From an uncultured Anaerolineales bacterium (lineage in GTDB: Bacteria; Chloroflexota; Anaerolineae; CG2-30-64-16), in NCBI GenBank assembly GCA_964551735.1, contig CAZKEF010000014.1, positions 54,820 through 118,819 of the forward strand: a stretch of 64,000 bases of DNA. The letters are read 5' to 3'. The notes beneath the pieces were generated by a model. It was not told the DNA's origin, made no database searches, and worked only from the letters and a program-made list of their open reading frames with translations. Positions within the stretch are counted from its first letter, which is position 1; each line of letters starts with the position of its first letter. Shown one piece after another: positions 1,388 through 52,395 of the stretch. A program made the position numbers and the translations under genes.

Positions 1388-1414
1388 GGTAGTGCGTTCT
1401 CCTCTGGCAAGAGT

Positions 1415-2678: not shown

Positions 2679-3162
2679 GGGCGCGCGTAACCTTGCGCAG
2701 CGCGACAGCCAGCGAGTCGCCGGGCTGGATGTCCACGTCGGCCAGGATGCGCGTCACGTAGGCTTCGATCTCGTTGAAGCCGCTGGCGCGGGCCACTGAC
2801 ACCCGATGGTTGCCATCGGAGACAAAGTAGACGCTGCCCACCTGAAAGACCTCGATGGGCGGCACCCCGATGAACTCGGCCATGGTCACATCAATCCGCA
2901 CCCAGCGATCCCGATCCACCGCGCCGCGCGGGTGGAAATGCCGCGTGAAATCCTGCGACCGGCCCGTGCTGCCCACGATCCGGTCGAGTGGGATGGACTG
3001 CGGCTGAGGCAGGCGCAACCGGCCGTAGTCGCGCAACGCGGCCATCAGGGTGTTGAACGGCAGCAGGTCGGCCGGCCGGCCCGTCAGGCGCGCGCAGAGA
3101 TCCTCGCGGATCGCTGCCCAGCGAGCTTTGAAAAACAATTGCCGGCCGACGTAAAAGCTCAC
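2632..3162 (-). CDS. Hypothetical protein with ParB/sulfiredoxin-like domain
   Basis: Motif IEVFQVGSVYFVSDGNHRVSVARASG resembles the ParB/Srx DGxHR..A core. Start codon uncertain. Confidence 0.4.
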   Translation of the reverse strand: MSFYVGRQLFFKARWAAIREDLCARLTGRPADLLPFNTLMAALRDYGRLRLPQPQSIPLDRIVGSTGRSQDFTRHFHPRGAVDRDRWVRIDVTMAEFIGVPPIEVFQVGSVYFVSDGNHRVSVARASGFNEIEAYVTRILADVDIQPGDSLAVALRKVTRARASAPDEPVEGHHAD

Positions 3163-3180
3163 TTTGCTCCTGCCTGCATC

Positions 3181-5975: not shown

Positions 5976-5981
5976 CTGAGT

Positions 5982-9598: not shown

Positions 9599-9599
9599 G

Positions 9600-11666: not shown

Positions 11667-11694
11667 AGGATTACCCGAGATAGGATCATGCTCT

Positions 11695-11847
11695 GGCATC
11701 GAGACTTTAGCCGGTTTGTTGCTCAACGCGAGTGACCGGCTGAAGCCTCCATTCCATCGGATCGCGATGTTGCAGGATTCCTGGATTCGAGGCTTTAGCC
11801 GATTGGACTCGCAACTCAGAGAGACCGGCTGAAGCCTCGAATCCGGG
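11695..11847. repeat. Two tandem family-A REP-like elements immediately upstream of the GH31 start
   Basis: Direct comparison with the other family-A copies. Confidence 0.7.
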
Positions 11848-12981: not shown

Positions 12982-14161
12982 GGTAACCCCTCCATGCGCG
13001 GGCAGTCTCATACATCGCCGCCAAGTTGACGGCCGGGGTGCGCGGGGCCAGGTTGTTGGCTTCGCGCAGCACGAACCGCCCGCCCTCGCAAACGCCCGAA
13101 CCCAAGATGCGCGCCGTCTCGGCCCGCACGTCCTCCGGCGATCCATCACGCAGGATCATCACCGTCGGGCCGCCGTGGATCGTCACGTCCGGCCCCAGCT
13201 CGCGGCGGAGGCGGCCGTGATCCACCGGGAAGCCGGTCTCGAAGTCGTTGACGCCCAACTCATCCTTCAACCAACGGAAGTGCCGGGTCGCGTCGCCGCA
13301 CAGGTGGATCTTAACCTGCTCTGCGGTCGTAATACCCGCCTTCAGCTTGCGGTAGACGGGCAACATGAACTCACGCGCCATCTTGACCGAGATCAGTTGC
13401 AGGGCGTCATCGGCGAACCACATAGTATCCGGCGGATCCGGCAGCCCGAAGAAGCGGGCATGGGCGCGCACGCGAGCAATGGTGACTTCGGTGAGGAAGT
13501 CGAGCAGCGTGCGCGCATAGTCCGGGTCCTCGTAGAAGTCAGTGAACAACTCATGACCGCGCAGAGATACAGCCAGCGTCAGCGGGCCGCCGCTCCACCA
13601 GCCGAACGGGTCAACCTGCACCGGCCAACCGCGATACTCCGGCTCACGACGCAACCGCTCCTGCCACCGTTCGAGCATCTCGTGCGCCCGCCGGTACCAG
13701 CCCCTTCGACTTCGCTCAGGACAAGCGCCGGTCAGTGGATCGGGCAGGCCCGCGTCGAACAGCGCGTTCTTGCGATCGCCGGCCAAGATGGGTGGCGTAT
13801 CGGGCACCTGGCCCGGCAGAAAAAGCACCGGTGCGCCCAGATACGCGGCCTCGTCGAAGTTTTGCAGGTCAATCCGCACCAGCCACGCCTCTCGGTTCGG
13901 CGGCATCCCGACCGGATCATCGCAGAAGGGCGCGATGTGCTCGGCCCGCCAGGCCGCCGCGCGTAACTGGAAGTCCAGCATCGTATCGGCGTCCGTGCAA
14001 TAGCGCTCCCAGTCCACCGCACCGCCGGGGTTCACCGCATCGTTGTAGATGAAGAACTGCGTGGCCGTGCCCAGCGCGACCGGCGGCCGGATCGGCGCCC
14101 TCGCGTTGAACGCGTCCCAAACGGCCTGGGCTTCGGCGTTGTGTTCTTCACTGGAAGTCAT
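12974..14161 (-). CDS. URO-D-like family protein, paralog 5 (H-x-C: KIHLCGD, distal Cys SGVCEGG)
   Basis: Start MTSSEEH is preceded by GGAGCATCC. Family-like throughout. Confidence 0.65.
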   Translation of the reverse strand: MTSSEEHNAEAQAVWDAFNARAPIRPPVALGTATQFFIYNDAVNPGGAVDWERYCTDADTMLDFQLRAAAWRAEHIAPFCDDPVGMPPNREAWLVRIDLQNFDEAAYLGAPVLFLPGQVPDTPPILAGDRKNALFDAGLPDPLTGACPERSRRGWYRRAHEMLERWQERLRREPEYRGWPVQVDPFGWWSGGPLTLAVSLRGHELFTDFYEDPDYARTLLDFLTEVTIARVRAHARFFGLPDPPDTMWFADDALQLISVKMAREFMLPVYRKLKAGITTAEQVKIHLCGDATRHFRWLKDELGVNDFETGFPVDHGRLRRELGPDVTIHGGPTVMILRDGSPEDVRAETARILGSGVCEGGRFVLREANNLAPRTPAVNLAAMYETARAWRGYHD

Positions 14162-14275
14162 GGATGCTCCGTGGTGCGTATTGCGTATTACGTACTGCAC
14201 GCTGGCCCGATCTCCCTCGTCCCCCGTGTGTCATCGGTCGTCAGTCATCCGTCGTCGGTCGTCATTCGTCGTCCG

Positions 14276-32195: not shown

Positions 32196-33785
32196 ATGGA
32201 ACCGTTGCTGCGAGCCGTCAGCCTCTCCCTCACACTAGGCACGCTGCCGGCGCTCCGCCAGGTGAGCCTGGAGATTTTCCCCGGCGAAGTCGTCGGGCTG
32301 GCGGGCCAGAGCGGCGCCGGCAAGACCGCGCTCGCCATGCTGTTAGCCGGCGCCTATACGCCCACCGCGGGCGAGCTCTACCTGGCCGGCCGGCGGCTGC
32401 GTCCCCCTTTCCGTGCACGGAGCCTGGGCATCGAGGTGATCCACCAGCAGCCCGAAATGGCCGAGGGGTTGGACATCAGCCGCAACCTCTTTTTGGGCAG
32501 CGAGCTCGGCTGGCCGAAGGGAGCCGGCCGCTGGCTCAGGGTTCTGCAGCGCCGCCGGATGGACGAAGAGGCGGCGCACATCCTGGCGCGCCTGGGCATG
32601 TCGTGCCCCTTCCTACACGAGCGGGTGGCAAACCTGTCAAGCGAGCAACGCCAGTTGATCGCCATCGCCCGCGCGCTGACGCGGCCGGCACGGCTTGTCA
32701 TCATTGATGACCCCAGCTTGCTGCTCGGTTATCCCGCCCAACAAAGACTGCTGGGGCTCATCCGCGAGTGGCAACAACAGGGCACAGCCGTGTTCTTTGC
32801 CAGCGACAATGTGGACCTGCTCATGGCCGTGACCGACCGCATCCTGGTGCTGCGCCACGGCCGCTGTGAGGTTGAATTCCGCACCGACGCGGCCACCCGT
32901 GAGAGCATTCTCAGCGCTACGGTCGGCGCAGCCGATCAGCAACAGCTCACCCCCATCATCTGGGCGCTGGACAGTTATTACCGGGCGCGCGAACAGGCCG
33001 AAAAGCTGCACCAGCGGCAGGCGTTGTTGAAGCACGAGTTGAGCGCTGACGGCGAAGTGGATCGCCAACTCATTGACCACCTGGCCGATCAGATCACCGC
33101 GCTGGATCGCGCCAACCTCGCGCTGCAAGACGCACAGCGGCGGCTGCTGACCGAGTTGGAGCAAGAGCGCAAGCAGTTAGCGCGCGAGATTCATGACCAG
33201 GTGATCCAAGATCTGCTCGGAGTCGGCTACCAACTGGAAGAGCTGGAAGCCGAGGCGGGCGCGACCCCGGTGCTGCGCGCGGAGCTGCAAACCGTGCGTG
33301 ACAGCGTGCGCGAACTGGTGGGCGACCTCCGGCACATCTGCGGCGCGCTGCGGCCGCCGACGATTGACAGCCTGGGCCTGGGCTCGGCGCTGCAATCCTA
33401 CGCGCACGAGTGGCGCAGGCGAACCGGCATCGAGCTGACCCTCAACCTGGACCCCAACCTGGGACGCCTGCCCGAAGCTACCGAGCTCTCCATCTTCCGC
33501 ATCGTGCAAGAAGGGCTCAACAACGTGCGCAAACACGCCGCCGCGACGACGGTGACGATCAGCCTGGCGCATACCTCCCCCCGGCGGCTGATGCTGACCA
33601 TCGCGGATGACGGCCGCGGGCTAGGGGCAGACTTCGACCTGGCTGACCTTTCCACCCAGGGACATTACGGTGTGTTGGGCGTCACCGAGCGGGTGGCGCT
33701 GCTGGGCGGGCAGTGGCGTATCCACAATCGCCCCGAAGGCGGGACGTTGATCCAGGTGGAGATCCCACACCCGCGCGTGAGTTAG
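32196..33785 (+). CDS. Fusion protein: ABC-type nucleotide-binding domain (degenerate motifs), coiled coil, then HisKA_3/HATPase_c sensor histidine kinase
   Basis: Walker A GQSGAGKT and Q-loop HQQ are present. The signature is LSSEQ rather than LSGGQ, Walker B is IIDDP rather than DE, and the H-loop His is missing (FASDN). The kinase half has H-box LAREIHDQ, N-box QEGLNNVRKHA, G1 ADDGRGL and G2 GVLGVTERVALLGG. Confidence 0.75.
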   Translation: MEPLLRAVSLSLTLGTLPALRQVSLEIFPGEVVGLAGQSGAGKTALAMLLAGAYTPTAGELYLAGRRLRPPFRARSLGIEVIHQQPEMAEGLDISRNLFLGSELGWPKGAGRWLRVLQRRRMDEEAAHILARLGMSCPFLHERVANLSSEQRQLIAIARALTRPARLVIIDDPSLLLGYPAQQRLLGLIREWQQQGTAVFFASDNVDLLMAVTDRILVLRHGRCEVEFRTDAATRESILSATVGAADQQQLTPIIWALDSYYRAREQAEKLHQRQALLKHELSADGEVDRQLIDHLADQITALDRANLALQDAQRRLLTELEQERKQLAREIHDQVIQDLLGVGYQLEELEAEAGATPVLRAELQTVRDSVRELVGDLRHICGALRPPTIDSLGLGSALQSYAHEWRRRTGIELTLNLDPNLGRLPEATELSIFRIVQEGLNNVRKHAAATTVTISLAHTSPRRLMLTIADDGRGLGADFDLADLSTQGHYGVLGVTERVALLGGQWRIHNRPEGGTLIQVEIPHPRVS

Positions 33786-33817
33786 GGGATTTCCCCCAGT
33801 GCGGAGGGGGGAAATCC
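33786..33817 (+). terminator. Hairpin GGGATTTCCCCC-agtgcgga-GGGGGGAAATCC immediately after the NBD-HK stop
   Basis: Seen directly. Confidence 0.45.
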
Positions 33818-34011
33818 GATACTGCTGGCGCCATTTACCTGTATCCAAACGGGGTTAGCTGTGGTATACTGGCATTTGTCGTTTATTTCACCCCAATGAC
33901 AACATCGCAGTAAGAACACATGGAGGTGCGCTGCTGACTCAAAACTGCACAGAACATTCCCCACACATTCCATTCACGCATTCCGTTCACTTACCCAAAG
34001 GGAGGATCACA

Positions 34012-36201
34012 GTGAGAACCAATCTGTCACGTTTCATCATGATCGTCGTCGCCCTGGCGATGATCGCCGCATTCCTGACTGGCTGCCCCAGCCCTGCGAC
34101 CCCAGCCCCGGCAACGACCGGCGGCCAGACCGAGGCAGGCAAGGTGCCGGTAGGCATCGTGCTGCCGACCAAGGACGAACCCCGCTGGATCCAGGACCAG
34201 ACCCGCTTCCAGGATGCACTGAAGGCCGCGGGCTACGACGTCCAGATCCTGTTCAGCCAGGGCGATTCCGCCAAAGAGAAGGCCAACGTCGAGGCGCTGA
34301 TCAGCCAGGGCATCCAGGTCTTGGTCATCTGCCCGCATGATGGCACAGCGGCGGCGGCCGCCGCGGATGCTGCCCGCGCTGCGGGCGTGAAGGTCATCTC
34401 CTACGACCGCTTGATCCGCGACACCGACGCGGTAGACTACTACGTCACCTTCGACTCGGTCGCGGTCGGCGAGGCCTGGGGCCAGTACCTGGCCGACATG
34501 GCCGGCGCCACCAAGGGCAACAACCTCTACCTCTACGCCGGCGCGGCTTCCGACAACAACGCCTTCCTCTTCTTCGAGGGTGCCTGGAACAAGCTGCAGC
34601 CCAAGATCGCCGACGGCACCTTCGTCATCAAGAACTCCAGTGAAGCCGTCGCCCTGCAAGGCAAGGCCACGCTGACCCGCGACGAGATGGCCAAGATCAT
34701 CGGCCAGGTCACCACCAACTGGGATTTCGCCGTCGCCAAGAACCTCGCCGAGGCTAACCTCACCGCGGCCAAGCCCGAGGATAAGGGTACCGTCTTCATC
34801 GCCGCGCCCAACGACGGCACCGCCCGCTCCATTGCCGATGCCTTCGCCGCCGACAAGGAAGTCACCAAGTACTACATCACCGGCCAGGACGCCGAGAAAG
34901 CCTCCGTCCAATACATCATTGACGGCAAGCAGTCCATGACCGTCCTCAAGGACGTCCGCACCCTGGTCAGCGACGCCATCACCGCGGCCGTCGCCTACCT
35001 CAAGGGCGGCACGCCTGAGAAGACCACCACCTACAACAACGGCAAGATTGACGTGCCAGCCAAACCGTCCGCCATCGTCACCGTCACCCAGGACAACGTC
35101 AAGGCCGCCATCGTTGACTCCGGCTACTACCCGGCCAGCGACTTCCCGACCCTGGGCGCGGCCGCCCCTGCCCCGACCGGCAAGGTGCCGGTAGGCATCG
35201 TGCTGCCGACCAAGGACGAACCCCGCTGGATCCAGGACCAGACCCGCTTCCAGGATGCACTGAAGGCCGCGGGCTACGACGTCCAGATCCTGTTCAGCCA
35301 GGGCGATTCCGCCAAAGAGAAGGCCAACGTCGAGGCGCTGATCAGCCAGGGCATCCAGGTCTTGGTCATCTGCCCGCATGATGGCACAGCGGCGGCGGCC
35401 GCCGCGGATGCTGCCCGCGCTGCGGGCGTGAAGGTCATCTCCTACGACCGCTTGATCCGCGACACCGACGCGGTAGACTACTACGTCACCTTCGACTCGG
35501 TCGCGGTCGGCGAGGCCTGGGGCCAGTACCTGGCCGACATGGCCGGCGCCACCAAGGGCAACAACCTCTACCTCTACGCCGGCGCGGCTTCCGACAACAA
35601 CGCCTTCCTCTTCTTCGAGGGTGCCTGGAACAAGCTGCAGCCCAAGATCGCCGACGGCACCTTCGTCATCAAGAACTCCAGTGAAGCCGTCGCCCTGCAA
35701 GGCAAGGCCACGCTGACCCGCGACGAGATGGCCAAGATCATCGGCCAGGTCACCACCAACTGGGATTTCGCCGTCGCCAAGAACCTCGCCGAGGCTAACC
35801 TCACCGCGGCCAAGCCCGAGGATAAGGGTACCGTCTTCATCGCCGCGCCCAACGACGGCACCGCCCGCTCCATTGCCGATGCCTTCGCCGCCGACAAGGA
35901 AGTCACCAAGTACTACATCACCGGCCAGGACGCCGAGAAAGCCTCCGTCCAATACATCATTGACGGCAAGCAGTCCATGACCGTCCTCAAGGACGTCCGC
36001 ACCCTGGTCAGCGACGCCATCACCGCGGCCGTCGCCTACCTCAAGGGCGGCACGCCTGAGAAGACCACCACCTACAACAACGGCAAGATTGACGTGCCAG
36101 CCAAACCGTCCGCCATCGTCACCGTCACCCAGGACAACGTCAAGGCCGCCATCGTTGACTCCGGCTACTACCCGGCCAGCGACTTCCCGACCCTGAAGTA
36201 A
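34012..36201 (+). CDS. Sugar ABC substrate-binding lipoprotein with two identical tandem SBP domains (perfect 1041-bp in-frame duplication)
   Basis: GTG start after AAGGGAGG. Signal peptide with lipobox LTGC. Residues ~44-390 and ~391-729 are identical, matching nucleotides 34138-35155 and 35179-36196. Confidence 0.7.
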   Translation: MRTNLSRFIMIVVALAMIAAFLTGCPSPATPAPATTGGQTEAGKVPVGIVLPTKDEPRWIQDQTRFQDALKAAGYDVQILFSQGDSAKEKANVEALISQGIQVLVICPHDGTAAAAAADAARAAGVKVISYDRLIRDTDAVDYYVTFDSVAVGEAWGQYLADMAGATKGNNLYLYAGAASDNNAFLFFEGAWNKLQPKIADGTFVIKNSSEAVALQGKATLTRDEMAKIIGQVTTNWDFAVAKNLAEANLTAAKPEDKGTVFIAAPNDGTARSIADAFAADKEVTKYYITGQDAEKASVQYIIDGKQSMTVLKDVRTLVSDAITAAVAYLKGGTPEKTTTYNNGKIDVPAKPSAIVTVTQDNVKAAIVDSGYYPASDFPTLGAAAPAPTGKVPVGIVLPTKDEPRWIQDQTRFQDALKAAGYDVQILFSQGDSAKEKANVEALISQGIQVLVICPHDGTAAAAAADAARAAGVKVISYDRLIRDTDAVDYYVTFDSVAVGEAWGQYLADMAGATKGNNLYLYAGAASDNNAFLFFEGAWNKLQPKIADGTFVIKNSSEAVALQGKATLTRDEMAKIIGQVTTNWDFAVAKNLAEANLTAAKPEDKGTVFIAAPNDGTARSIADAFAADKEVTKYYITGQDAEKASVQYIIDGKQSMTVLKDVRTLVSDAITAAVAYLKGGTPEKTTTYNNGKIDVPAKPSAIVTVTQDNVKAAIVDSGYYPASDFPTLK
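34138..36196 (+). repeat. Perfect tandem direct repeat, 2 x 1018 bp joined by a 23-bp linker (period 1041 bp = 347 codons)
   Basis: Identical ORF-track entries 34533-34868 and 35574-35909, and identical nucleotide lines offset by 1041 bp. Confidence 0.85.
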
Positions 36202-36300
36202 GCGCCTGTAGCCAGTTCAGCCAGGAATAGTGATGGTGATGCAAGCCATCACTATTCCTGTGTCTTCTCGCCATTTCCTACTTCACCAGGAGATCTTGCC

Positions 36301-38862
36301 ATGCCAAACCAGCCTCCCATCTTGGAGATGAAGCACATTAGCAAATCTTTCCCCGGCGTGAAAGCGTTGAACGACGTGACCTTTCAAGTCGCCGCGGGTG
36401 AGATTCACTGCCTGGTCGGCGAAAATGGCGCCGGTAAGTCTACACTCATGAAGGTGCTGAGCGGTGTCTACCCCTATGGCATGTACACGGGTGATATCCT
36501 CTTCAACGGGGAAGTGCAGAAGTTTTCCGGCATCAGCGACAGTGAGAGGGTCGGCATTGCCATCATCTATCAGGAGCTGGCGCTGGTCCCTGAGATGACG
36601 GTCTATGAGAACATCTTCCTCGGCAATGAGATCCGAAAAGGCCTGACCATTGATTGGAACGAAACCATCAAGCGGGCGACGGAAGCACTCAAAAAGGTCA
36701 GGCTTGATGTCAACCCCGAGACCAAAGTCAAACATCTGGGCGTGGGCAAGCAGCAACTAATCGAAATTGCCAAGGCGCTGAGCAAGGATGTGAAACTGCT
36801 CATCCTGGATGAGCCGACTGCGGCACTGAACGAGGATGACAGCGAGAACCTGTTGAACCTGATCCGCGAGCTCAAAGGGCACGGCGTCTCGTGCGTCATG
36901 ATTTCGCACAAACTGAAAGAGGTTATCGCCATTGCAGATACGGTCACCGTTCTACGCGATGGCCAGACCATCTGTACGCTGGATGCCCACAAGGGCGAGG
37001 TGTCGGAACATGTGTTGATCAAACACATGGTTGGCCGCGAAATCAACAACATCTATCCGACCAGGCAGCGCAATCCGTTCAAAGCCACTGGGGGCGCCGT
37101 CGAAGCGGCGAAAGCGGCCGGGGTGAAGGTCATTTCGTATGATCGCCTGATCACCAACACCAAAGTCGTGGACTATTTTGTGACCTTTGACAGCATTGCG
37201 GTCGGCGTGCAACAGGCGCGCTACCTGGTTGACCGTGCACAGGGCAAGGGCAACCCGTTGTACCTCTATGCCGGCGCCCCGTCAGACAACAACGCCTTCC
37301 TGTTCCTCCAGGGCGCGTGGGGCGTGTTGCAGCCCAAGATTGCGGATGGCACGTTCGTCATCAAGAATTCGAGCCAGGCCAGTAAGCTCCAGGCAAACGT
37401 CGCGCTGACGCGTGACCAGGCCAGCGCGATCTTCGGACAGATCACCACCAACTGGGATCGCCATACTGCCCACAACCTGGCGCAGTTCAACCTGGCCGGC
37501 GTCACGGCGGCTGATAAGGGCAACGTCTTTGTTCTTGCGCCCAACGATAACACCGCGCGGGCAATCGGCGACGTATTCGCTGCCGATCCGGACGTCAAGA
37601 GCTACGTGATCACCGGTATGGATGCCGAGGAGGCCTCCCTCCCTTACATCCTCGAAGGCAAGCAGTCCATGACCGTTTTCAAGGATGTCCGCACACTGGT
37701 GCAGGCCGCGGTTGACGCGGCGGTCGCCCTGCTTAAGGGTCAGGCGCCCGCGACCAATGGCGTCTTCAACAACGGCGCCATGGACGTCCCGGCATTGCAG
37801 TCTCCGGTCATCGCCGTGGACCAGACGAACGCGAAAGCCATGCTGGTTGACTCTGGTTATTACAAAGTCAGCGATGCGGCCGGCGCGGCCCAGAAGTCCG
37901 CTGTCGCAGGCAACGTTGCCATCGGGGTCGTCCTCCCGACCGCCGACGAGCCGCGCTGGCTCCAGGATCGGGCCCGTTTCCAGGCCGCGTTCAAAGCAGC
38001 CGGGTACAATGCCGAAATCCTGTTTAGCCAGGGCAATGCCGCCAAGGAGAAAGAGAACATCGAGACGCTGGTGGCGAAGGGTATCAAAGTCCTTATCATC
38101 TGTCCGCAGGGCGGCGGCGAAGTGGTGCTCGAGGTCAAGAACTGGAACGCCTACGACCCCGCCGTGGGCCGGGAGATCCTCAAGGATGTAAACTTCAACG
38201 TCAAGAAGGGCGAGATCGTCGGCTTTGCGGGCCTGATGGGGTCCGGCCGCACCGAGCTGGCCTTGAGCCTGTTCGGGAATCCGAAAAACTATCGGACCCG
38301 GGGCGAGATTTACATCCAGGGCACGAAGCAGCACTTCACCCATCCGCACGAGGCTATCGCCGCGGGCATCGCGTATGCGACCGAGGACCGCAAGGCGGCT
38401 GGCCTGATCCTGATCCAGGATGTGAAACAAAACACCACGTTGGCGAACTTGCAGGAGATCGCCCGGCGTGGCGTCGTGGACGGCAATGCCGAGATCAAGG
38501 TGGCGGAAGAATACCGGAGCTCCCTTAACATCAAGACGCCGTCCATCGTGCAAAAGGTGGGCAACCTGAGCGGCGGCAACCAGCAAAAGGTCCAGATTGC
38601 GAAGTGGCTGTTCGTGAAGCCCGACCTGCTCATCCTGGACGAGCCGACGCGCGGCATTGATGTCGGCGCCAAGTATGAGATTTACACCATCATGACCCGG
38701 CTGGTGGAGCAGGGCATGAGCATCATCATGATCTCGTCCGAGTTGCCCGAGGTCCTGGGCATGAGCGATCGCGTGTATATCGTCTCGGCCGGTCGGATCA
38801 CCGGCGAGCTGCCGATCGAGGAAGCGACGCAAGAGAAGATCATGCAACTGGCCACAAGTTAA
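36301..38862 (+). CDS. CUT2-type sugar ABC ATPase (two NBDs, RbsA/XylG-like) with a ~340-aa circularly permuted SBP-like domain inserted between NBD1 and NBD2
   Basis: NBD1 (aa 1-261) and NBD2 (aa ~593-853) are complete: Walker A GENGAGKST and GLMGSGRTEL, signatures LGVGKQQ and LSGGNQQ, Walker B LILDEPT twice. The segment between them (GVKVISYDRLITNTKVVDYFVTFD ... KVLIICPQGG) is ~70% identical to the upstream SBP and is ordered C-half then N-half. Confidence 0.7.
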   Translation: MPNQPPILEMKHISKSFPGVKALNDVTFQVAAGEIHCLVGENGAGKSTLMKVLSGVYPYGMYTGDILFNGEVQKFSGISDSERVGIAIIYQELALVPEMTVYENIFLGNEIRKGLTIDWNETIKRATEALKKVRLDVNPETKVKHLGVGKQQLIEIAKALSKDVKLLILDEPTAALNEDDSENLLNLIRELKGHGVSCVMISHKLKEVIAIADTVTVLRDGQTICTLDAHKGEVSEHVLIKHMVGREINNIYPTRQRNPFKATGGAVEAAKAAGVKVISYDRLITNTKVVDYFVTFDSIAVGVQQARYLVDRAQGKGNPLYLYAGAPSDNNAFLFLQGAWGVLQPKIADGTFVIKNSSQASKLQANVALTRDQASAIFGQITTNWDRHTAHNLAQFNLAGVTAADKGNVFVLAPNDNTARAIGDVFAADPDVKSYVITGMDAEEASLPYILEGKQSMTVFKDVRTLVQAAVDAAVALLKGQAPATNGVFNNGAMDVPALQSPVIAVDQTNAKAMLVDSGYYKVSDAAGAAQKSAVAGNVAIGVVLPTADEPRWLQDRARFQAAFKAAGYNAEILFSQGNAAKEKENIETLVAKGIKVLIICPQGGGEVVLEVKNWNAYDPAVGREILKDVNFNVKKGEIVGFAGLMGSGRTELALSLFGNPKNYRTRGEIYIQGTKQHFTHPHEAIAAGIAYATEDRKAAGLILIQDVKQNTTLANLQEIARRGVVDGNAEIKVAEEYRSSLNIKTPSIVQKVGNLSGGNQQKVQIAKWLFVKPDLLILDEPTRGIDVGAKYEIYTIMTRLVEQGMSIIMISSELPEVLGMSDRVYIVSAGRITGELPIEEATQEKIMQLATS

Positions 38863-44708: not shown

Positions 44709-45671
44709 ATGACAACCCACAAACGAGTCTCTCGGGCAATCCTGCCCGGCGTGCTATTGATCCTGGCCCTGGCCTTTGCGGGCTGCGTCCCCGTGCCGGA
44801 ACAACCTGGCGCGTCGGCGCCCGCAGCCACCGAAACGCCGCTGCCCGCCACCGAGACCCCGGCGCCGCCCCTGGAGCTTCCCACACCAACGACCTGGCTG
44901 CCTGCGCAGAGCGCTATCGAGGCCCTGGCCAGGCAACTCAGCATCGAGCCGTCCCAGGTGCAGTTGGTGTCATCCGAGCCTGCCGAATGGCCCGATGGCT
45001 GCCTGGGCGTAAGCCAGCCCGGGATTATGTGCACCCAGGCCATTGTGCCCGGTTATCGCTTCATCATGCAGGCAAGTGGACAGCAATACGAGGTGCGCAC
45101 TGATCAAACCGGCGCCGCGGCCGTGGTCGTCCCAGCGAAGCAAGCGAAGCCCGGAGACCCACCGGCGGTGATGGCTGCCCGTACGGCAATGGCTGTGCAG
45201 CTCGGCCTGGAACTGGACATGGTGAAGGTGTGGACGGTGGAGCCAATGACCTGGCCGGACGCGTGTCTAGGCGTGCCCCAACCGGATGAGATGTGCGCAC
45301 AGGTGCTGACGCCGGGCTATCGTATCGTGATCGAGGTGAACGGCGTGCGGTACGTGCTCCACACCGACGAGACGGGCGCGCAGGTGCGCGCGGCGCCGGT
45401 AGCCACCGAGGAACCGGCTGTCATCACCATCCTGCGCGACCTCATTGCAGGCCAACTCGGCATCAGCGCCGATGGGGTGCAAGTGATCTCGATTGAAGCT
45501 GTGGAATGGCCGGACGCCTGCCTGGGCGTACAAAGGGCTGACATCGTTTGTGCGCAAGTGGTGACGGCGGGGTACAAGATCGTACTGATAGCTGAAGGCC
45601 AACGCTTCACGTATCACACCGATGCGCCAGGGAACAGCATCCTGTTGGTGGAGGAGATCGTGATCGAGTAG
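44709..45671 (+). CDS. Lipoprotein with three tandem ~85-aa repeat domains (conserved EWPDxCLGV...C.Q...PGYRI...Y..HTD)
   Basis: Lipobox LAFAGC and three internal repeats, each with a Cys pair. AAAGGAG SD. Confidence 0.55.
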   Translation: MTTHKRVSRAILPGVLLILALAFAGCVPVPEQPGASAPAATETPLPATETPAPPLELPTPTTWLPAQSAIEALARQLSIEPSQVQLVSSEPAEWPDGCLGVSQPGIMCTQAIVPGYRFIMQASGQQYEVRTDQTGAAAVVVPAKQAKPGDPPAVMAARTAMAVQLGLELDMVKVWTVEPMTWPDACLGVPQPDEMCAQVLTPGYRIVIEVNGVRYVLHTDETGAQVRAAPVATEEPAVITILRDLIAGQLGISADGVQVISIEAVEWPDACLGVQRADIVCAQVVTAGYKIVLIAEGQRFTYHTDAPGNSILLVEEIVIE

Positions 45672-45699: not shown

Positions 45700-45972
45700 T
45701 CATTCCTTCCTGCCGAGCAACTCCTCCGCCTTTGCCACGTAACGCCGCGCGGTCTCCACGTCGCCGGCCAGCAAATAGCTGGCAGCCAGCCGCGCGGCGC
45801 CGCGCACCTCAGCCGAATGCGTGCCAGCCGAAAAGCGCTCGATGGCGGCACGCAGCAACTGCTTCTCCGTCTGCGTGCGCAAGCTGGGATCTGCCCGGAC
45901 AACGTCACCGTCGTCGGTGACATTATCGGGCAGGCCGCTGCGCTTGTGCCACATGGCCACATCTGACGTCAT
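45700..45972 (-). CDS. Small hypothetical protein (ATGA-coupled to upstream MFS gene)
   Basis: ORF MTSDVAMWHKRSG...AEELLGRKE. The longer 186-aa ORF overlaps the MFS gene and is unlikely to be real. Confidence 0.3.
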   Translation of the reverse strand: MTSDVAMWHKRSGLPDNVTDDGDVVRADPSLRTQTEKQLLRAAIERFSAGTHSAEVRGAARLAASYLLAGDVETARRYVAKAEELLGRKE

Positions 45973-47213
45973 GGGCGCTGCCTTTCCCGCCCGAAGAACA
46001 CCCAATACAAAAAGGTCGAAATCGTATAGAGCACGATGGTCAACATGAACGGCGGCCCGAAGCCATAGCGCACTTGCAGCATGCCGCTGACCGTGGGCGA
46101 GAAGGCCCAGCCGAAATTCCACGACATGCTCACCAGGCTGGCTACCGTGGCGCGGGCCGATGGCTCCACCCTTTCCATGACGAAGGTCTGGTAGACCGGC
46201 CCACTCATGTTCATCAGCGCCACGCGCACCAGGTAGGCCGCGGTGCTGAGCCAGAACCACGGTGCGAAGCCAAGCAGAATCAGGAACGGGATGGAGAGCG
46301 CCTGGGTGACGACCACCAGCCGGATCTTGCCCATGCGGTCGGCCAACGGCGGCGCCAGAAGCAGACCGATGCCCATCGAGAGTGAACCCCAGGCGAACAG
46401 CGTGCCGATCACCGGATCGGGCTGGCGGTAAACCTGGCGGAAGAAGACGTTCATGAACGGCATGATCAGCCCAGCGCCGATGGAAGTGACCAGCATCGGA
46501 AGCACCAGCTTGCTGAGCAGTGCGGGATGTTCGGATGCATACGACAGCGGCGCAAACGCCGAGCGCTCATCCTGGGCCAACCGCGGGGTGCGCAGCAAGG
46601 CCAACGGGATCAGAGCCACCGCGGCCACACTCGCAGTAACCAGCAACGAGCGCCCATAGGCTGCGCTGCTCACGGCGCTAAAGCCGCGCCCGGCCGCCAC
46701 CCAGGTCGGCAGATAGCCGCCCAGCCAGTTGCCCACCGACGCAGAAGCCATCTGTAGGCCCGACCCGAAGCTGAACAAATAGGTGCGCTCATGCTCGGTG
46801 CTGTTTTCCATCAAGAAGGGGCTCATGGTGACCGCGGCCAGGCTCTGCGCCACCCCAAAGACCATGTTCATGGCATACAACATCCCGGCGCCGGGCTGCG
46901 CCACCATGACGACTACGGCCAGGGCTGTAGATCCGCCCGAGACCAGCAACGAGCGTTTACGGCCCAACAGGTCGGCCAGATAGCCCATAGGTAGCGCAAC
47001 CACCAGTGAGGTCAGGCTGTTAGCCGTCACCAGCCGCCCTAATAGCGCCTCATCATAGCCCTGGCTGAGCACGAAGAAATTGAAGAGCAAGCGGAACACG
47101 CCCATTGCCGCGCCGGTCAACACCACGTTAACCAGATAGAGCCGGGCATTGGGGCTGAACGCGCGCAGGCGCGTGCCGTAAGCACGCAAGGCTCGAGCCA
47201 GACGCAGCCCCAT
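45969..47213 (-). CDS. MFS transporter
   Basis: 12 predicted TM segments and the MFS signature region GYLADLLGRKRSLL. Confidence 0.75.
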   Translation of the reverse strand: MGLRLARALRAYGTRLRAFSPNARLYLVNVVLTGAAMGVFRLLFNFFVLSQGYDEALLGRLVTANSLTSLVVALPMGYLADLLGRKRSLLVSGGSTALAVVVMVAQPGAGMLYAMNMVFGVAQSLAAVTMSPFLMENSTEHERTYLFSFGSGLQMASASVGNWLGGYLPTWVAAGRGFSAVSSAAYGRSLLVTASVAAVALIPLALLRTPRLAQDERSAFAPLSYASEHPALLSKLVLPMLVTSIGAGLIMPFMNVFFRQVYRQPDPVIGTLFAWGSLSMGIGLLLAPPLADRMGKIRLVVVTQALSIPFLILLGFAPWFWLSTAAYLVRVALMNMSGPVYQTFVMERVEPSARATVASLVSMSWNFGWAFSPTVSGMLQVRYGFGPPFMLTIVLYTISTFLYWVFFGRERQRP

Positions 47214-47917
47214 CAGGGTTGCTCCAAGGCCTTGACCGGGCCCGTGGGCCTACTGTCAGACCGCTCGGCCACCAACCGTTGACATAGACGCACACCCTCC
47301 ATCGCATCAATAGACCAGTGATCCGCACCCACAAAGCGACACACTTGTTCATCCACCTGGCCGCCCAACAGGATCGGGAGCTGCCGCCCATCCTCCGCCA
47401 TCATAGCCCTGAGCGCGGTAACCGTATCGCGCATGGTGGGGTACGCCGCGGCGATCAGCCCCGACATGCCGATGATATCCGGCAAGAACGCTCGGGCCTC
47501 GGCTACGAAGCGGGCCGGCGCCACATCCACGCCCAGGTCCAGCACGGTAAAGCCGTAACACTGCAACAACATCAACAACAGGTTTTTGCCCAGGTCGTGG
47601 ATGTCTCCTTGGACAGTGCCCAGCAGCACCCGGCCCGAAGTGTGACCCGAAAAGCGCGCCTCGACCGAAGGCATCACGATATCCATTACCTCGCGCAAGA
47701 TCTCTCCGGCCATGATCAGGCCGGAGAGGAAGTAGCGCCGCTGTGCGTACCGCTCACCCACGTCACGCATGCCGACCTGGCACTCCTCAATGATCTGCAA
47801 AGGGTCATCCCCGCGGTCCATGCGCGCCTGCACCATCGCGAGCACTTCCTGTTCGCGCAGATCGGCCAACGCCGCAGCCAGCTCAGCTGCACTTGCCACA
47901 TGTAGATTGTCCGCCAT
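47213..47917 (-). CDS. Corrinoid (cobalamin)-binding protein, MtaC/MtbC-like (B12-binding_2 cap plus B12-binding domain)
   Basis: DxHxxG motif GDIHDLGKN and the B12-binding Rossmann region. 1-nt overlap with the MFS gene. Confidence 0.75.
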   Translation of the reverse strand: MADNLHVASAAELAAALADLREQEVLAMVQARMDRGDDPLQIIEECQVGMRDVGERYAQRRYFLSGLIMAGEILREVMDIVMPSVEARFSGHTSGRVLLGTVQGDIHDLGKNLLLMLLQCYGFTVLDLGVDVAPARFVAEARAFLPDIIGMSGLIAAAYPTMRDTVTALRAMMAEDGRQLPILLGGQVDEQVCRFVGADHWSIDAMEGVRLCQRLVAERSDSRPTGPVKALEQP

Positions 47918-47952
47918 CGTTACTCCCATGCACCCGCCTGGTTGGCCGACCG

Positions 47953-48723
47953 CTACACCCCGACACGGGCGTTGAAGCGGAGGCGATCACCGGGCACAAT
48001 GAACCATCCCCAGCTCACCGGCCGGTCCTCGAAATCATAGAAGACGTGTTCGATGCAAAAGGCGGAGCGGCCTACCGGAACGGCAAGCAGCTTCGACTCT
48101 TCCTCGGTAACCACCGTGGTCTCAATGGTAAGATCCCCCCGCTTGAGCACGGTTTCCCCGTGGCCGTGAAACAGGCCCTGCAAGGTGGTGATGCCCATCT
48201 CCGCCTCAACGATGGGCTGTGTCGGATCGAAGATCAGATACTCGCGATGATACGCGACCGGTTGGCCGTCCCGCGATAACAGACGACGGATGGAGATCAC
48301 CTTATCGTCCATCGGCACACCCAGCCGCTGGCTGACACGCGCGGTTGCTGGCGTCGTGCGCACGGACAGGAAACGCACGACCGTGTTTTCATCGTTGAAG
48401 AGATCCTCCAACGCTTGCAGCCCGAAAGTGGCCCTGCCCAGCACCAGCGGCCGGACGAAGGTGCCGCGGCCGCGCGTCGCGGTCACCAGGCCCTCGTCCA
48501 GCAAGATGTTGATCGCCCGGCGCACGGTCATGGGGCTGACCTCGTACCGCTCGCATAACTGCGCCTCGGACGGCACGCGGTCACCGGGCCGGAGCTCACC
48601 GGATGCGATCTGCTGGCGCAGAATGTGGGCAAGTTGGTAATACGGCGGCTCGAAAGAGTTGCGGTCAATGTTGGCCCCCCGCGCCGATCGGGTGCGGGCA
48701 GCAGGCATCTGGGTTGTCACCAT
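47953..48723 (-). CDS. GntR-family (HutC/FarR subfamily) transcriptional regulator with UTRA effector domain
   Basis: HTH YYQLAHILRQQIASGELRPGDRVPSEAQLCERYEVSPMTVRRAINIL, then a UTRA-like C-terminus. GGAGACAG SD. Confidence 0.8.
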   Translation of the reverse strand: MVTTQMPAARTRSARGANIDRNSFEPPYYQLAHILRQQIASGELRPGDRVPSEAQLCERYEVSPMTVRRAINILLDEGLVTATRGRGTFVRPLVLGRATFGLQALEDLFNDENTVVRFLSVRTTPATARVSQRLGVPMDDKVISIRRLLSRDGQPVAYHREYLIFDPTQPIVEAEMGITTLQGLFHGHGETVLKRGDLTIETTVVTEEESKLLAVPVGRSAFCIEHVFYDFEDRPVSWGWFIVPGDRLRFNARVGV

Positions 48724-48813
48724 ACCGGATCTGTCTCCACGGGCGGCGCGCGCAGCGCGACCACCGGTCTGAACCATGGATTTCAGGGTAACATCATACC
48801 ACGATCTTTCGAT

Positions 48814-48842
48814 TTGACAAGTTCCCTAGGGTATTATATAAT
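48814..48842 (+). promoter_or_regulatory. Perfect-consensus sigma70 promoter TTGACA, 17-bp spacer, TATAAT; the spacer contains palindrome CCCTAGGG
   Basis: Seen directly in an unusually AT-rich patch, in the divergent region between the GntR gene and the MtrH-like gene. Confidence 0.5.
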
Positions 48843-49135
48843 TAACTCAATTCTCAGCCCTGCTGCGACCCACGGAGGTCTGATGTCCCCCCGACTCGCG
48901 CTGATTGACACCGGCCGCGGGGACATGACACATTACCGCGAGGTTGCGCGGCGCCTGGCCGAGCGCTGGGATCTGCGCTCCGAAGAGATCTCCGGCTCGA
49001 ACGCGCTGGTGCGCAAGATGCTATTGGGTCCCTGGGACGACGGCTTCGTGGTGATCCCGCCGGGCGAAGCTATCCGCTACTATCATTTCTTCCCGGCTGC
49101 CGTGGAAGAACCAGCACCCCCAAAGGAAGGGCACA

Positions 49136-49918
49136 ATGAGAATCATCGGCGAGAAAATCAACGGCACCCGCAAAGCGGTGAAACAGGCCGTACTCGACCG
49201 CAACGTCGAGTCCATCCAGAAGCTGGCCGCGGCCGGCTCGACTTGGATCGACGTCAACGCGGGCACTCCAACGGACCGCGAGCCGGACGACCTGGTCTGG
49301 CTCGTGCAGACGGTGCAGGCAGCGGTGACCAAACCACTCTGTCTGGACAGCGCGAACCCGGATGCGCTGGCGGCCGCGCTGCCCCACGTCAAGCAGGCAC
49401 CCCTGATCAACTCCATCAGCGGCGAGACGGCGCGGCTGACCGGCGTGTTGCCGCTGGCTGCGCAGGCCAAAGGCGGGGTCATCGCCCTGGCCATGGACGA
49501 CAAGGGCATCCCTGCGGACACCGAAGGCCGGCTGGCGATCGTGCGCCGGTTGATTGACGAGACGCGCACCGCGGGCATCCCCGATGAGCAGGTCTATGTG
49601 GACCCGTTGGTGATGACCATCGGCGCCAGCGGCAACGCGGCGCGTGTGGCATTGGCCACGGTGCGCGCGGTCGAAGCCGAGTATCCCAAGGTCCACTTCA
49701 CCTCGGGCCTCAGCAACATCTCCTTCGGCCTGCCGGTGCGCACGCTGATCAACCGAGCATTCCTGACGTTGATGTTGGAGGCCGGCCTGGACACGGCTAT
49801 CCTCGACCCGCTGGACCGGGAGCTGCGCAAAGCGCTGCTGGCCGCCGAGGCCACGCTCGGCATTGACAGGCATTGCCTAAACTACACCCGCGCGTACCGC
49901 GCTGGGCTGTTGGAATAA
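49136..49918 (+). CDS. Methyltetrahydrofolate:corrinoid methyltransferase-like pterin-binding protein (MtrH/AcsE family)
   Basis: N-terminus MRIIGEKINGTRKAVKQAV...WIDVNAG is typical of MtrH/AcsE. AAGGAAGGG SD. Confidence 0.7.
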   Translation: MRIIGEKINGTRKAVKQAVLDRNVESIQKLAAAGSTWIDVNAGTPTDREPDDLVWLVQTVQAAVTKPLCLDSANPDALAAALPHVKQAPLINSISGETARLTGVLPLAAQAKGGVIALAMDDKGIPADTEGRLAIVRRLIDETRTAGIPDEQVYVDPLVMTIGASGNAARVALATVRAVEAEYPKVHFTSGLSNISFGLPVRTLINRAFLTLMLEAGLDTAILDPLDRELRKALLAAEATLGIDRHCLNYTRAYRAGLLE

Positions 49919-50145
49919 GACTGGCCCGGCGACTGGAAATCACGGCTACCTTCGCCAAGTCCACCTGCATGGACTGACAATCAGTTGGCGCAGGCCGACT
50001 TCGCAAGGGTGGCCGCGGTTTCAGCCGCCGAGACCCCATCACAAGGGAGGATTTTCATATCGGAGCAACTGAGCAACGCCATCGCCGAAATGGACGAGGA
50101 GGGCGCACTGGCGATGGCCTGGATAAAGGCAAACCCACTCACCCG

Positions 50146-50850
50146 CTACGCCACCCCCGAAGCCACCCCCAGCGCGCCCGATGGGAATGTGAACGCCCAC
50201 CAGGACAGCGCGTACGGCAAGTTTTGCTTACGGACATAATGTGACACCACCAGCAGTGCCATGATGAACCACCATAGGGCGAAGCCCCAGGTCATCAGAA
50301 TGCCCAATTTCGCCAGCGGCGCAAAAGCCTGCGGGTCAACTCCCAGCACCGGGGCAGCCTCAAACAACTGCTGCAGCTTGGACAGATCTACCGCCAAGAT
50401 CGCGGGCGGCGCGATGCCGATGAAGAAGGTGGCGGCGAACCTGCTCATAGGCAGCTCCTCGAAAATGTACCGGTGATAGACGGCCGCGCCCACGAATAGG
50501 AACAGGAAGAATCCCACCCCCAGGCCGATCATAGACAGGCCGAAAATCCACTCCGCCTGGTCCGGGAAGATATGGGCCAACTCAAACCCGGCGATCGGGA
50601 TCAGCAGCTTGGAGACTGGCGGGATATACCAGCCGAAGTTCGCGTGGCCGATCTTGATCCCCTCGTGCCGGTAGATGCGCTCCACGATCACGCAGCCCAT
50701 GCCGAAGATGCTCACTGTGCTGATCAGCCACAGCCAGAAGGCGATCTGATGCGACACCCCCGGCGCGAAGAATAGATCCGGGTATTTGATCAGATCCAGC
50801 GCGATGATAATCAACGAGATCGGCATCGTGGGAAAAAAAACTGGCCGCAA
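50146..50850 (-). CDS. Integral membrane transporter, C-terminal portion (TDT/TehA-like); N-terminal segment separated by an in-frame TGA next to an A8/T8 tract
   Basis: Hydrophobic 234-aa ORF. In the same frame, ~50 hydrophobic codons upstream (VIPLALSFIPAPIVRLVAGMFTVIAAAMFLAFL) end at a TGA five codons before the annotated start. The homopolymer lies at 50829-50836. Confidence 0.4.
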   Translation of the reverse strand: MRPVFFPTMPISLIIIALDLIKYPDLFFAPGVSHQIAFWLWLISTVSIFGMGCVIVERIYRHEGIKIGHANFGWYIPPVSKLLIPIAGFELAHIFPDQAEWIFGLSMIGLGVGFFLFLFVGAAVYHRYIFEELPMSRFAATFFIGIAPPAILAVDLSKLQQLFEAAPVLGVDPQAFAPLAKLGILMTWGFALWWFIMALLVVSHYVRKQNLPYALSWWAFTFPSGALGVASGVA

Positions 50851-51253
50851 CCGGGTGGTTCAGGTCGCCCTGAACCGCAGCCCAATGCTTGATGAGGCGC
50901 CACGTCCACGGCGTAAAAATGCCAGAAACATTGCCGCGGCGATCACCGTGAACATGCCGGCAACCAGCCTGACGATCGGCGCAGGGATGAATGAAAGCGC
51001 CAACGGGATCACCGCAATACATCCTTCGAGGCATGATCTCCGCCTGGTTTACCGCCATACTTATGAAACAAGGAGAAGACCGATGTCCGCACACGGACCC
51101 AACCTGATCCGACGTTTCCCCCTGGCCGCGTTCTTCATCCTGGCCTATGCGTTCAGTTGGGGCCTTTCCCTCTTCACCGCGCCGGGCGCGCTGCCTTCAT
51201 GGTGAAGGCCGGCCCTCTCTTAGGGTATCATGCGCCGGTTGACTTCCATGTAG

Positions 51254-52395
51254 ATGCTTCTGAGCTTTGCTTTGCTGTTGGCTGCGCCAAACCAGGCCGC
51301 GACCACGGACGCGGTGCCAGCCCACTCATGCAGCACTTTCCTGCTGCAAGCCGGTGAGGCGTTCTATGTGGGTCACAATCTGGATGATGACTACAACGTA
51401 CCGGGCACAGTGGTGGTTAACCCGGCCGGCGTGCGCAAGGAGAGCCTGAGTTGGGAGGATGACCTCTACGCCGCCTTTGGCAAGAGCCGCCGCGCGCCGC
51501 GCGTCCGTTGGGTAGCCCAATATGGCTCGATCACCTACAACACGCAGGGCCGCGATTTCATTGACGGCGGGATGAACGAGGCCGGACTGTACGTGGGCGA
51601 GATGACCCTGCGCAGTACGATCCGGCCGCCTCAGGGCAAGCTGCCCAGGATCGAACCGCGGTTGTGGATGCAATACTTGCTGGACAACTTCACCAGCGTG
51701 GATGAGGTCATCACCAGCCTCGAAACCGTTGCGGTCGGCGGGCCGACCACCTGGCACTTCTTCGTCGCTGACCGGCTGGGCGAGACCGCGGCCAGCAAAT
51801 ACTGGAGGGCCAGGTCGTGATCCGGGGCGGCGCAGCGATGCCGGTCAAGGCACTCTGTAACGCGCCCTACGAGGTGGAGTTGGCGAAGCTGACGCAGTTC
51901 GAGGGCTTTGGCGGACACATGCCGTTGGACATGGCAGACAAGGACCCGCAAGCCGATCGCCGCTTCGCCTGGGCTGCGGCGCTGCTGGCCGCCCACTCGG
52001 CCACCGGGGCGCCGGAGCCGGCCGCCTGCGCGTTCGACATCCTGGACGAGCTGGACCTAGGCAACAACCAGTGGCAGGTAGTCTACGATCTCACTCACGG
52101 GAGGATGTATTTCCGTACGGCGCAAGCGCGCCAGGTGCGCCAGGTGGACTTTGCAGCCTTCGACTTCGCCTGTCCCGCGCCGGCGATGATGCTGGACATT
52201 CAGCGCGACCTGGCGGGCGATGTCGCGGACGCGTTCGAACCGTACAGTGAGACGAGCAACCGTGCGTTCATCCGCCGCGCCCTCGCGCCGCTCGACCTGG
52301 GGGTGCCAGCGCCGCTGGCCCAGGCGTTCAAGAGGCTATGGGAGAAACGTCTGTACAATCATACGCACGGCTTCATCTGCACGGTTGAGAAATAA
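51254..52395 (+). pseudogene. Choloylglycine hydrolase/linear amide C-N hydrolase (Ntn hydrolase) family gene split by a frameshift near 51790-51820
   Basis: Signal peptide followed by nucleophile Cys (AHSCSTFLL). Two adjacent ORFs, 51254-51820 and 51817-52395, in different frames together span a family-sized protein. Confidence 0.55.

Follow-up and report, generated by a model that had tools for sequence, protein, structure and literature searches.

The 64,000-nt stretch of DNA analysed here, referred to as the window, comes from an uncultured Anaerolineales bacterium (GenBank assembly GCA_964551735.1, contig CAZKEF010000014.1, positions 54,820–118,819). It contains a gene for a small corrinoid protein, here designated CP*, which lies between the genes for a GntR-type regulator and a major facilitator superfamily (MFS) transporter and is divergent from a gene for a methyltetrahydrofolate (methyl-THF):corrinoid methyltransferase (MT-II). 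A gene for a substrate-specific methyltransferase (MT-I) does not adjoin it, and a preliminary description of the sequence had suggested that this architecture may mark an uncharacterised methyl-transfer pathway. The question is therefore what a corrinoid protein does at a locus of this kind. Comparison with approximately 100 related loci from at least three phyla indicates that the locus is very probably the remnant of a corrinoid methyltransferase cluster whose catalytic core was deleted in this genome, and it is close to certain that GntR and CP* form a conserved bicistronic unit. The explanation as a whole, i.e., an eroded cluster of the Mtv/Odm/Mto type together with a GntR-CP* unit in which CP* would serve as a co-sensor, is one that we favour by somewhat more than an even chance.

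The related loci (designated by L and a number) were sampled from contigs encoding close homologs, from a one-genome-per-species scan and from a metagenome scan with an alignment of CP*, and the neighbouring genes were labelled with reference proteins.

The methyltransferase cluster of the relatives and its scars in the window

The four genes recognized in the preliminary description were found at their places in the window (Table 1) and were of coding type, with a GC content at third codon positions of 0.75–0.87. Their identities were borne out by Pfam and NCBIfam matches as an MFS transporter, a corrinoid protein with the GDIHDLGKN motif at residues 108–116, a GntR regulator and a methyltransferase. 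The described 1-nt overlap of the CP* and MFS genes is also real, base 47213 being common to the stop codon of the former and the start codon of the latter, and it was likewise found in L001 and L099. For GntR, the longest open reading frame (ORF) extends to 48777, and a 100% identical public gene call starts at 48723 and has 256 aa; the protein has the N-terminal winged helix-turn-helix and the C-terminal UTRA domain of the HutC type, and showed 77–88% identity to the GntR proteins of L003 and L001. Its stop codon is separated from the CP* start by 23 nt. MT-II is indeed encoded divergently, and its product matched Pterin_bind (5.8e-18), NF005719 (306 bits compared to a cut-off of 259) and, in PDB, 4o0q (218 bits) and MeTr 2yci (153 bits).

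Homologs of CP* were present in thousands, and the best 120 (69–91% identity) were from Anaerolineae or Chloroflexota where the source was named. The relatives showed a uniform layout: GntR is followed by CP*, and the pair is divergent from an operon of DUF1638, MT-II, a catalytic corrinoid gene (CP211), URO-D-type MT-I, MFS and RACo. The URO-D-like MT-I is present in one or more copies of 420–447 aa, the MT-I and corrinoid proteins of the operon have sizes of approximately 47 and 22 kDa, and the operon MFS belongs to another family than the MFS of the window. Among the 31 loci with at least 6 kb of sequence upstream of GntR, URO-D and CP211 were found in 25, DUF1638 in 18, MT-II in 17 and RACo in 11. 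L003, where the full operon flanks the pair, showed 85% (MT-II, BLAST), 77% (GntR) and 81% (CP*) identity to the window; its MT-I matched the chloromethane MT-I CdmB in PDB (118 bits), and the RACo of L004 scored 445 bits against the AcsV family.

Four-component systems have been described as MtvABC from Moorella, Odm from Acetobacterium dehalogenans and Desulfitobacterium hafniense, MtoABCD from Methermicoccus (PMC8630106) and CdmBCA (PMC13222342). Like Mtv, Odm and Mto, the operon of the relatives includes MT-I, a corrinoid protein, MT-II, a RACo/RamA-type activase, an MFS transporter and a regulator, and judged by its sequence this catalytic cluster is a known O-demethylase/chloromethane-type system, the substrate of which we leave unassigned. 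It differs in that every locus has an extra, regulator-coupled corrinoid paralog, which is undescribed for the Mtv, Odm, Mto and Cdm systems. Furthermore, the MT-II of the window is of the pterin-binding type (PF00809), whereas MtoA is of the MtrH type (PF02007), and unlike Mtv, Odm and Mto the window itself is without MT-I, catalytic corrinoid protein and activase. Genes for MT-I, a RACo/RamA activase or a homocysteine (Hcy) methyltransferase were not found in the 64-kb window by Pfam scans of essentially all credible ORFs and tblastn with reference proteins, and neither the RACo of L004 nor the PF02574 protein of L001 gave a tblastn match there. No homolog of the cluster MT-I was present in the window either, where the sole URO-D-like genes are distant paralogs at 326–14200; these are at least 31.7 kb away, and the earlier statement that no MT-I is adjacent was correct.

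What is left of the operon in the window carries the marks of deletion. The DUF1638 remnant keeps residues 152–221 of a 228-aa protein and showed 77% identity over 70 aa to L003 (tblastn, blastp); it has no stop codon before MT-II, and its frame continues to 49557. Behind MT-II, the CP211 scar has kept its Shine-Dalgarno sequence, and residues 1–20 are matched at 75% identity (tblastn); compared to the gene start in L096 it showed 89% nucleotide identity (blastn), with the homology ending at approximately 50118. The sister lineage L099/L100 has the same order of GntR, CP* and MFS with the 1-nt overlap, a differently decayed DUF1638 and a CP211 kept after MT-II, and in L001 the whole operon has gone except for 35 DUF1638 codons, while GntR-CP* persists. 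Because of these scars and the state of the locus in L099/L100 and L001, the missing MT-I is explained by a recent loss through deletion and is no mark of a new pathway. The comparison of genomic context in relatives, which the preliminary description had itself recommended, places GntR, the corrinoid protein and MT-II in a canonical four-component corrinoid methyltransferase cluster, the outcome named there as refuting the proposal, and the DUF1638 fragment and the first 20 codons of CP211 are the scars of that cluster. The window locus itself is an ordinary, decayed member of a known cluster type.

All four genes of the window showed pairwise ratios of nonsynonymous to synonymous divergence (dN/dS) of 0.08–0.19 compared to relatives, and MT-II, 87–95% identical to L003, L099 and L096 in global alignments, had a dN/dS of 0.08–0.10. 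The synonymous divergence (dS) from L096 was 0.42 for MT-II compared to 0.95 and 1.00 for the adjacent GntR and CP*; this low value could be due to a codon-usage constraint or to a separate history of the two halves of the locus.

DUF1638 has been linked genetically to B12 reactivation in split methionine synthases (PMC5764234), and a representative search brought up a protein in which DUF1638 is naturally fused to the cap and B12 domain of a corrinoid protein (P0159, 471 aa), which gives a Rosetta-stone hint that DUF1638 may act directly on corrinoid proteins. In the lineage of the window, DUF1638 is decayed (window, L099 and L104; independently in the latter two) or absent (L007, L008 and L096). 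Alternatively, the module could belong to a cobalamin-dependent methionine synthase that is split into a pterin-binding and a B12 domain, as known from Phaeobacter and Ruegeria. The split MetH/MtgBCD systems of Roseobacters likewise combine DUF1638 and a small corrinoid protein with a pterin-binding methyltransferase and a RamA-like activase (PMC5764234, PMC12478193), and L001 does have a separate corrinoid gene beside a PF02574 gene. However, the module is without an Hcy-binding or MttB-type partner, PF02574 is absent from the window, the partner in the relatives is a URO-D-type MT-I, and the PF02574 gene of L001 adjoins a corrinoid paralog only 31% identical to CP*. We regard this alternative as so improbable as to be nearly negligible.

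The GntR-CP* unit

GntR was found directly upstream of CP* on the same strand, according to automatic labels, in 61 of the 63 CP* genes for which the upstream sequence extended over 900 nt or more; in the two others GntR was detected by tblastn, once adjacent and once beyond a 1-kb insertion. In 30/79 pairs CP* has a possible start codon that overlaps the stop codon of GntR (19 of them with a 4-nt overlap of the ATGA type), and 45 more have gaps of 0–40 nt. In the reverse test, two GntR homologs picked regardless of CP* (66% and 63% identical) were both followed by CP*. The catalytic genes behaved differently: no same-strand GntR was present upstream of CP211-type genes (0/53), and MT-I followed CP211 in 31/39, whereas a same-strand MT-I followed CP* in none of the 53 cases with downstream sequence, two of which had a URO-D gene on the opposite strand within 400 nt. 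No recurrent gene family was found downstream of CP*. The pair is present in Chloroflexota, Actinomycetota (Thermoleophilia) and Desulfobacterota. One of its hosts in the last phylum is available in culture, Desulfosarcina variabilis str. Montpellier (L103, CP159846.1, approximately 7.698–7.719 Mb), where the CP* annotation as 'MttC5: trimethylamine corrinoid protein' is probably a misnomer. A description of a GntR-corrinoid protein pair was not found in the literature searched, which included antirepressors, stand-alone B12 domains, O-demethylases of Chloroflexi/Anaerolineae and D. variabilis.

The region between GntR and MT-II contains promoters in both directions. On the plus strand, toward MT-II, TTGACA (48814–48819) and TATAAT (48837–48842) are separated by a 17-nt spacer and agree with the consensus at 12/12 positions; on the minus strand, toward GntR, TTGTCA and TATGAT are separated by 16 nt (48820 down to 48793). 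A conserved element covers the −35 box and the spacer of the MT-II promoter in the window, and those of the divergent promoter in 34/34 matching sources. Each of these 34 sources had a single copy of its 15-nt form TAGGGAA[C/G]TTGTCAA, without exception upstream of GntR and in the same orientation, compared to 0.007 occurrences expected by chance in 1.9 Mb, and at the more distant loci related variants rich in TATA(G/T) were found, frequently twice. The position of this putative operator is as expected for a promoter-occluding repressor. The predicted regulator resembles HutC, NagR/DasR, PhnF and TreR in its winged helix-turn-helix and UTRA domain and its divergent arrangement; autoregulation and an operator over the target promoter, as in these repressors, are predicted for it too. 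Neither a cobalamin riboswitch nor any other Rfam family was found in the window.

CP* has a four-helix B12-binding_2 cap and a Rossmann B12 domain, and its best match in PDB was 4jgi, i.e., CobDH of the D. hafniense O-demethylase (141 bits, 3.5e-40, residues 18–220). The B12 motifs D109-x-H111-x-x-G114, S156-x-L158 and G189-G190 were invariant in alignment A1, and among 87 CP* sequences the motif residues were conserved at 0.97 or more, except for G190 at 0.72. CP* differs nevertheless from the catalytic proteins, with 38–40% identity to CP211. In a neighbour-joining tree the 87 CP* sequences formed one pure clade, and 4jgi, 1y80 and all CP211 sequences fell outside. The signature of the clade is YFLSGLIMAG, with Gly70 where the catalytic paralogs carry Glu or Asp. 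In the helix bundle, through which MtaC docks to MtaB (PMC3727330), CP* has Gly53 for Ala and Ser/Ala-Gly/Ala at positions 69–70 for Pro/Ser-Glu/Asp, and further differences from CP211 are located in the loop before the GG motif and at Trp205. The TIGR02370 score was 110.3 bits for CP* and 120 for its ortholog in L003, which does not reach the cut-off of 215.3, and none of the equivalog cut-offs for MtgC, MtbC and MtaC were reached by CP*. These features suggest a regulator-linked corrinoid paralog rather than a catalytic carrier.

The contexts in which the pair was found bear on the same point. In L041 the pair occurs twice, next to an MT-II gene in one case and next to MT-I and CP211 genes in the other. 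In a subclade of L069, L070, L079 and L082 (57–66% mutual identity) the pair is divergent from Fhs (formate-THF ligase), FolD and FTCD_C, and iron-sulfur flavoproteins, NuoE/NuoF-like or NfnB/GltD-like, are encoded behind CP*, in L069 together with a NiFe hydrogenase small subunit. A methyltransferase gene was not detected in the 6.7–9 kb upstream of GntR in L082 and L069. A regulatory role is preferred to a catalytic one because of this subclade, the duplication as a pair, the persistence in L001 and the absence of an MT-I neighbour.

The alternative that CP* is an ordinary catalytic or auxiliary carrier, serving as a carrier in reserve, as a store of B12 or as a chaperone for loading the catalytic paralogs, would take its position behind GntR to mean only that it is expressed constitutively, like a regulator. 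The conservation of all B12-binding motifs, catalytic corrinoid proteins (4jgi and 1y80) as closest structures, the MT-I genes outnumbering the catalytic corrinoid genes in L009, L015 and L058, and the intact MT-II beside CP* in the window are all in favour of it. On the other hand, CP* was present even where MT-I and corrinoid genes occur 1:1 (L004 and L006) or 2:2 (L003), it never adjoins MT-I, L041 has it in duplicate along with GntR, it has been retained next to Fhs/FolD where no methyltransferase gene was detected in the vicinity and also in L001 after the loss of the operon, and its TIGR02370 score is about half of the cut-off. We consider a carrier of this kind unlikely, though still to be reckoned with.

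Table 1. Features of the window and of three Fhs/FolD-linked loci, with positions numbered within the window or within the locus named.
Feature	Position	Strand	Remarks
MFS transporter	45969–47213	−	414 aa; Pfam MFS_1 2.5e-29
CP* corrinoid protein	47213–47929	−	238 aa; B12-binding_2 (PF02607) 1.6e-12, B12-binding (PF02310) 1.1e-17
HutC-subfamily GntR	47953–48723	−	256 aa from ATG 48723; PF00392 7.6e-22, PF07702 UTRA 1e-22
Divergent promoter/operator region	48793–48842	both	Promoters and conserved element
Conserved element TTGACAAGTTCCCTA	48814–48828		Includes palindrome CCCTAGGG (48824–48831)
Conserved element upstream of GntR, TTGACAAGTTCCCTAGGG			Putative operator
DUF1638 remnant	48883–49135	+	GGAGG Shine-Dalgarno sequence, ATG at 48883
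MT-II, methyl-THF:corrinoid methyltransferase, pterin-binding MeTr/AcsE type	49136–49918	+	Intact, 260 aa
CP211 (catalytic corrinoid gene) scar	50057–50118	+	Start ATG changed to ATA, 20 homologous codons
SLAC1/TDT transporter gene, N-terminally truncated	50146–50850	−	Pfam SLAC1 match from profile position 73/331
Choloylglycine-hydrolase (CBAH) gene, split in two ORFs	51254–51820 and 51817–52395		Pfam
Fhs/FolD-linked locus L069	3236–12747		
Fhs/FolD-linked locus L082	1660–9518		
Fhs/FolD-linked locus L079	1–7991		

The MFS transporter, the URO-D-like paralogs and neighbouring genes

The MFS protein of the window showed 81% identity to the one behind CP* in L001 and was unrelated to the operon MFS of L003 and L004. 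Its orthologs at 75–79% identity are common in Anaerolineae, and in L101 and L102 they were found in unrelated contexts with no GntR or CP* nearby. Among the approximately 100 loci this MFS follows CP* only in the window, L001 and L099/L100, and the order of MFS, a three-repeat protein and a YkuD/LysM protein is common to L101 and the window. Because of the contexts of the orthologs and this backbone synteny, MFS is uninformative on a methylated substrate, and we rejected it as a member of the system; a gene of the chromosomal backbone, it was added in a single lineage to the end of the GntR-CP* transcript. The hint at an imported substrate that had been seen in it has thus lost its basis. We also considered that CP* and MFS became adjacent by deletion of a PfkB-MGS block (L096, L101), which was unsupported, the two PfkB genes being unrelated. 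The three-repeat protein of the window (44709–45671, plus strand) has 320 aa with three repeats of approximately 70 aa and no Pfam or NCBIfam match; its homolog in L101 (7991–9286) is at the same backbone position.

The URO-D-like ORFs of the window are all on the minus strand, clear at 326–1387, 5982–7064, 11848–13149 and 12974–14200 and weak at 3244–4410, and sit in a LacI-controlled cluster with GH4, GH31, Amidohydro_2 and a fused GT28/UDPGT-GFO_IDH_MocA ORF. Their only match in PDB was a weak one to MtaA, they had no similarity to the cluster MT-I at E<1e-6, no corrinoid protein was found near them, and nothing connected them with CP*. As candidates for the missing MT-I, which the preliminary description had made them, they were rejected because they belong to another subfamily and are located over 31 kb off, in a sugar cluster.

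These results bear on the model put forward with the preliminary description, in which CP* is the carrier, the divergent MT-II and a distant URO-D protein as MT-I are its partners, and MFS imports the methylated substrate. CP*, MT-II and MFS are intact and under purifying selection, as this model would have it, and the URO-D paralogs w2–w4 have an H-x-C motif that resembles the MtaA zinc site. However, the deletion scars explain the architecture, MFS is a backbone gene found elsewhere in unrelated contexts, the URO-D paralogs lie in the LacI/glycosidase cluster at least 31.7 kb off and lack similarity to the cluster MT-I, and the window is without an activase, which together make the model improbable.

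Downstream of the CP211 scar, the SLAC1/TDT and CBAH genes are damaged (50146–52395); either this is a small region of pseudogenes, or the assembly contains indel errors here. Elsewhere in the window, at 32196–38862 on the plus strand, long ORFs merge domains that are normally separate: ABC_tran with HisKA_3/HATPase_c (32196–33785), two Peripla_BP_4 (34012–36201) and ABC_tran with Peripla_BP_4 (36301–38862); these are either real fusions or genes merged by frameshifts.

Further observations were made at three of the related loci. In L103, two genes for Phenol_MetA_deg outer-membrane channels are interleaved with corrinoid methyltransferase genes (3429–7849), which points to a hydrophobic aromatic substrate for the cluster type. 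In L104, the stretch 10577–13446, 2 kb downstream of a GntR-CP* pair, encodes in succession a MerR protein that has a B12-binding_2 cap, a B12-binding protein on its own, DUF1475 and a heliorhodopsin; it may represent a split CarH-like photoreceptor beside heliorhodopsin. Upstream of the eroded locus in L001 (1–5371) are a RACo-like gene, the gene for a 223-aa corrinoid paralog, a PF02574 Hcy S-methyltransferase gene and a gene for a 655-aa protein without Pfam or NCBIfam match; together these could form a MetH-like split system or a methyltransferase system of a new kind.

A possible co-sensor of the repressor

The explanation that we propose starts from what the comparison shows, an ancestral unit of a HutC/GntR repressor gene and CP*, divergent from the methyltransferase operon. 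In the window, deletions have left the promoter, the DUF1638 fragment, the intact MT-II and the CP211 scar of this operon, and the backbone MFS has joined the GntR-CP* transcript. GntR would repress both divergent promoters through the conserved element, and CP*, binding cobalamin in the His-on mode, may act as its protein co-sensor and signal the state of the corrinoid, i.e., apo or holo, its redox state, or methylation of the cobalt by MT-II (from methyl-THF) or by MT-I. Genes for methyl-group and one-carbon (C1)-THF metabolism would then be expressed only when useful, and in this genome the module would now control only MT-II, itself and MFS. That CP* is a cobalamin-based co-sensor of the repressor is a tentative proposal, drawn from comparative sequence data, which we place somewhat below an even chance. 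That it represents, more specifically, a new, non-photoreceptor transcriptional sensor based on cobalamin for methyl-group/methyl-THF flux or B12 supply is possible but doubtful. Such a sensor would distinguish Co(I)/Co(II) from CH3-Co(III), or apo from holo protein, and relay this to a HutC-type repressor that would act on O-demethylase-type operons in most lineages and on C1-THF genes (Fhs, FolD) in one subclade.

CarH/LitR are B12-dependent photoreceptor repressors; CarH joins a MerR DNA-binding domain and an adenosylcobalamin-binding B12 module with a Wx9EH motif in one protein. The likeness of CP* to CarH/LitR is confined to the proposal that a cobalamin-binding module controls transcription; unlike CarH, CP* is unfused and has neither a DNA-binding domain nor a Wx9EH motif nor a match to the CarH family. 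Another parallel is AerR/PpaA with CrtJ/PpsR, where a separate protein of B12-binding_2 and B12-binding domains is encoded beside a DNA-binding regulator on which it acts; unlike AerR/PpaA, the partner of CP* is HutC/GntR and not PpsR, a light or redox role is not evident, and the sequence of CP* is nearer to methyltransferase corrinoid proteins. CP* could alternatively be a light sensor of the CarH/AerR kind, in which photolysis of cobalamin would relieve or impose the repression by GntR and so protect light-sensitive methyl-cobalamin enzymes. The two-domain build is the same, and AerR-CrtJ (PMC6199135) offers a precedent for a stand-alone cobalamin-binding protein controlling a transcription factor. 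However, CP* did not match the CarH family at E<=1e-3, whereas the catalytic paralog did at 2e-06, the Wx9EH motif is absent from the CP* cap, and many of the hosts are anaerobes from sediment or digesters or sulfate reducers. A light sensor is accordingly a very improbable alternative.

Several points weigh against the co-sensor proposal and the history of deletion in which it is set. What speaks for a putative interaction of GntR and CP* is gene coupling, and from gene order alone co-function and co-expression are indistinguishable. UTRA domains, as a rule, have small molecules as ligands and work without a protein partner, known members of the HutC subfamily sense small molecules in this way, and we know of no member with an obligately co-encoded protein partner. 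Fusions of GntR with a corrinoid protein were absent among the 150 best representatives of 50% clusters and among the top 120 GntR matches, where the only fusions found were DUF1638-CP, Pterin_bind-CP and URO-D-CP. CP* keeps every residue needed for a catalytic His-on carrier and could be a simple third carrier. The reduced module may remain in use, given the dN/dS of its genes, and, the genome being metagenome-assembled, a join made in assembly is conceivable at the breakpoint near 50118.

For annotation, the window locus should not be described as a new pathway, nor its MFS as the importer of a substrate. What the comparison brings out is a GntR-CP* unit that is found with B12-dependent demethylase operons across three or more phyla and is new to the literature searched. 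The idea that CP* is a sensor is testable in the cultured and fully sequenced D. variabilis str. Montpellier. If it is true, it would help to sort orphan "MtbC-like" genes from metagenomes into regulators and enzymes, and transcription of these operons would be coupled to the catalytic state of the B12 cofactor.

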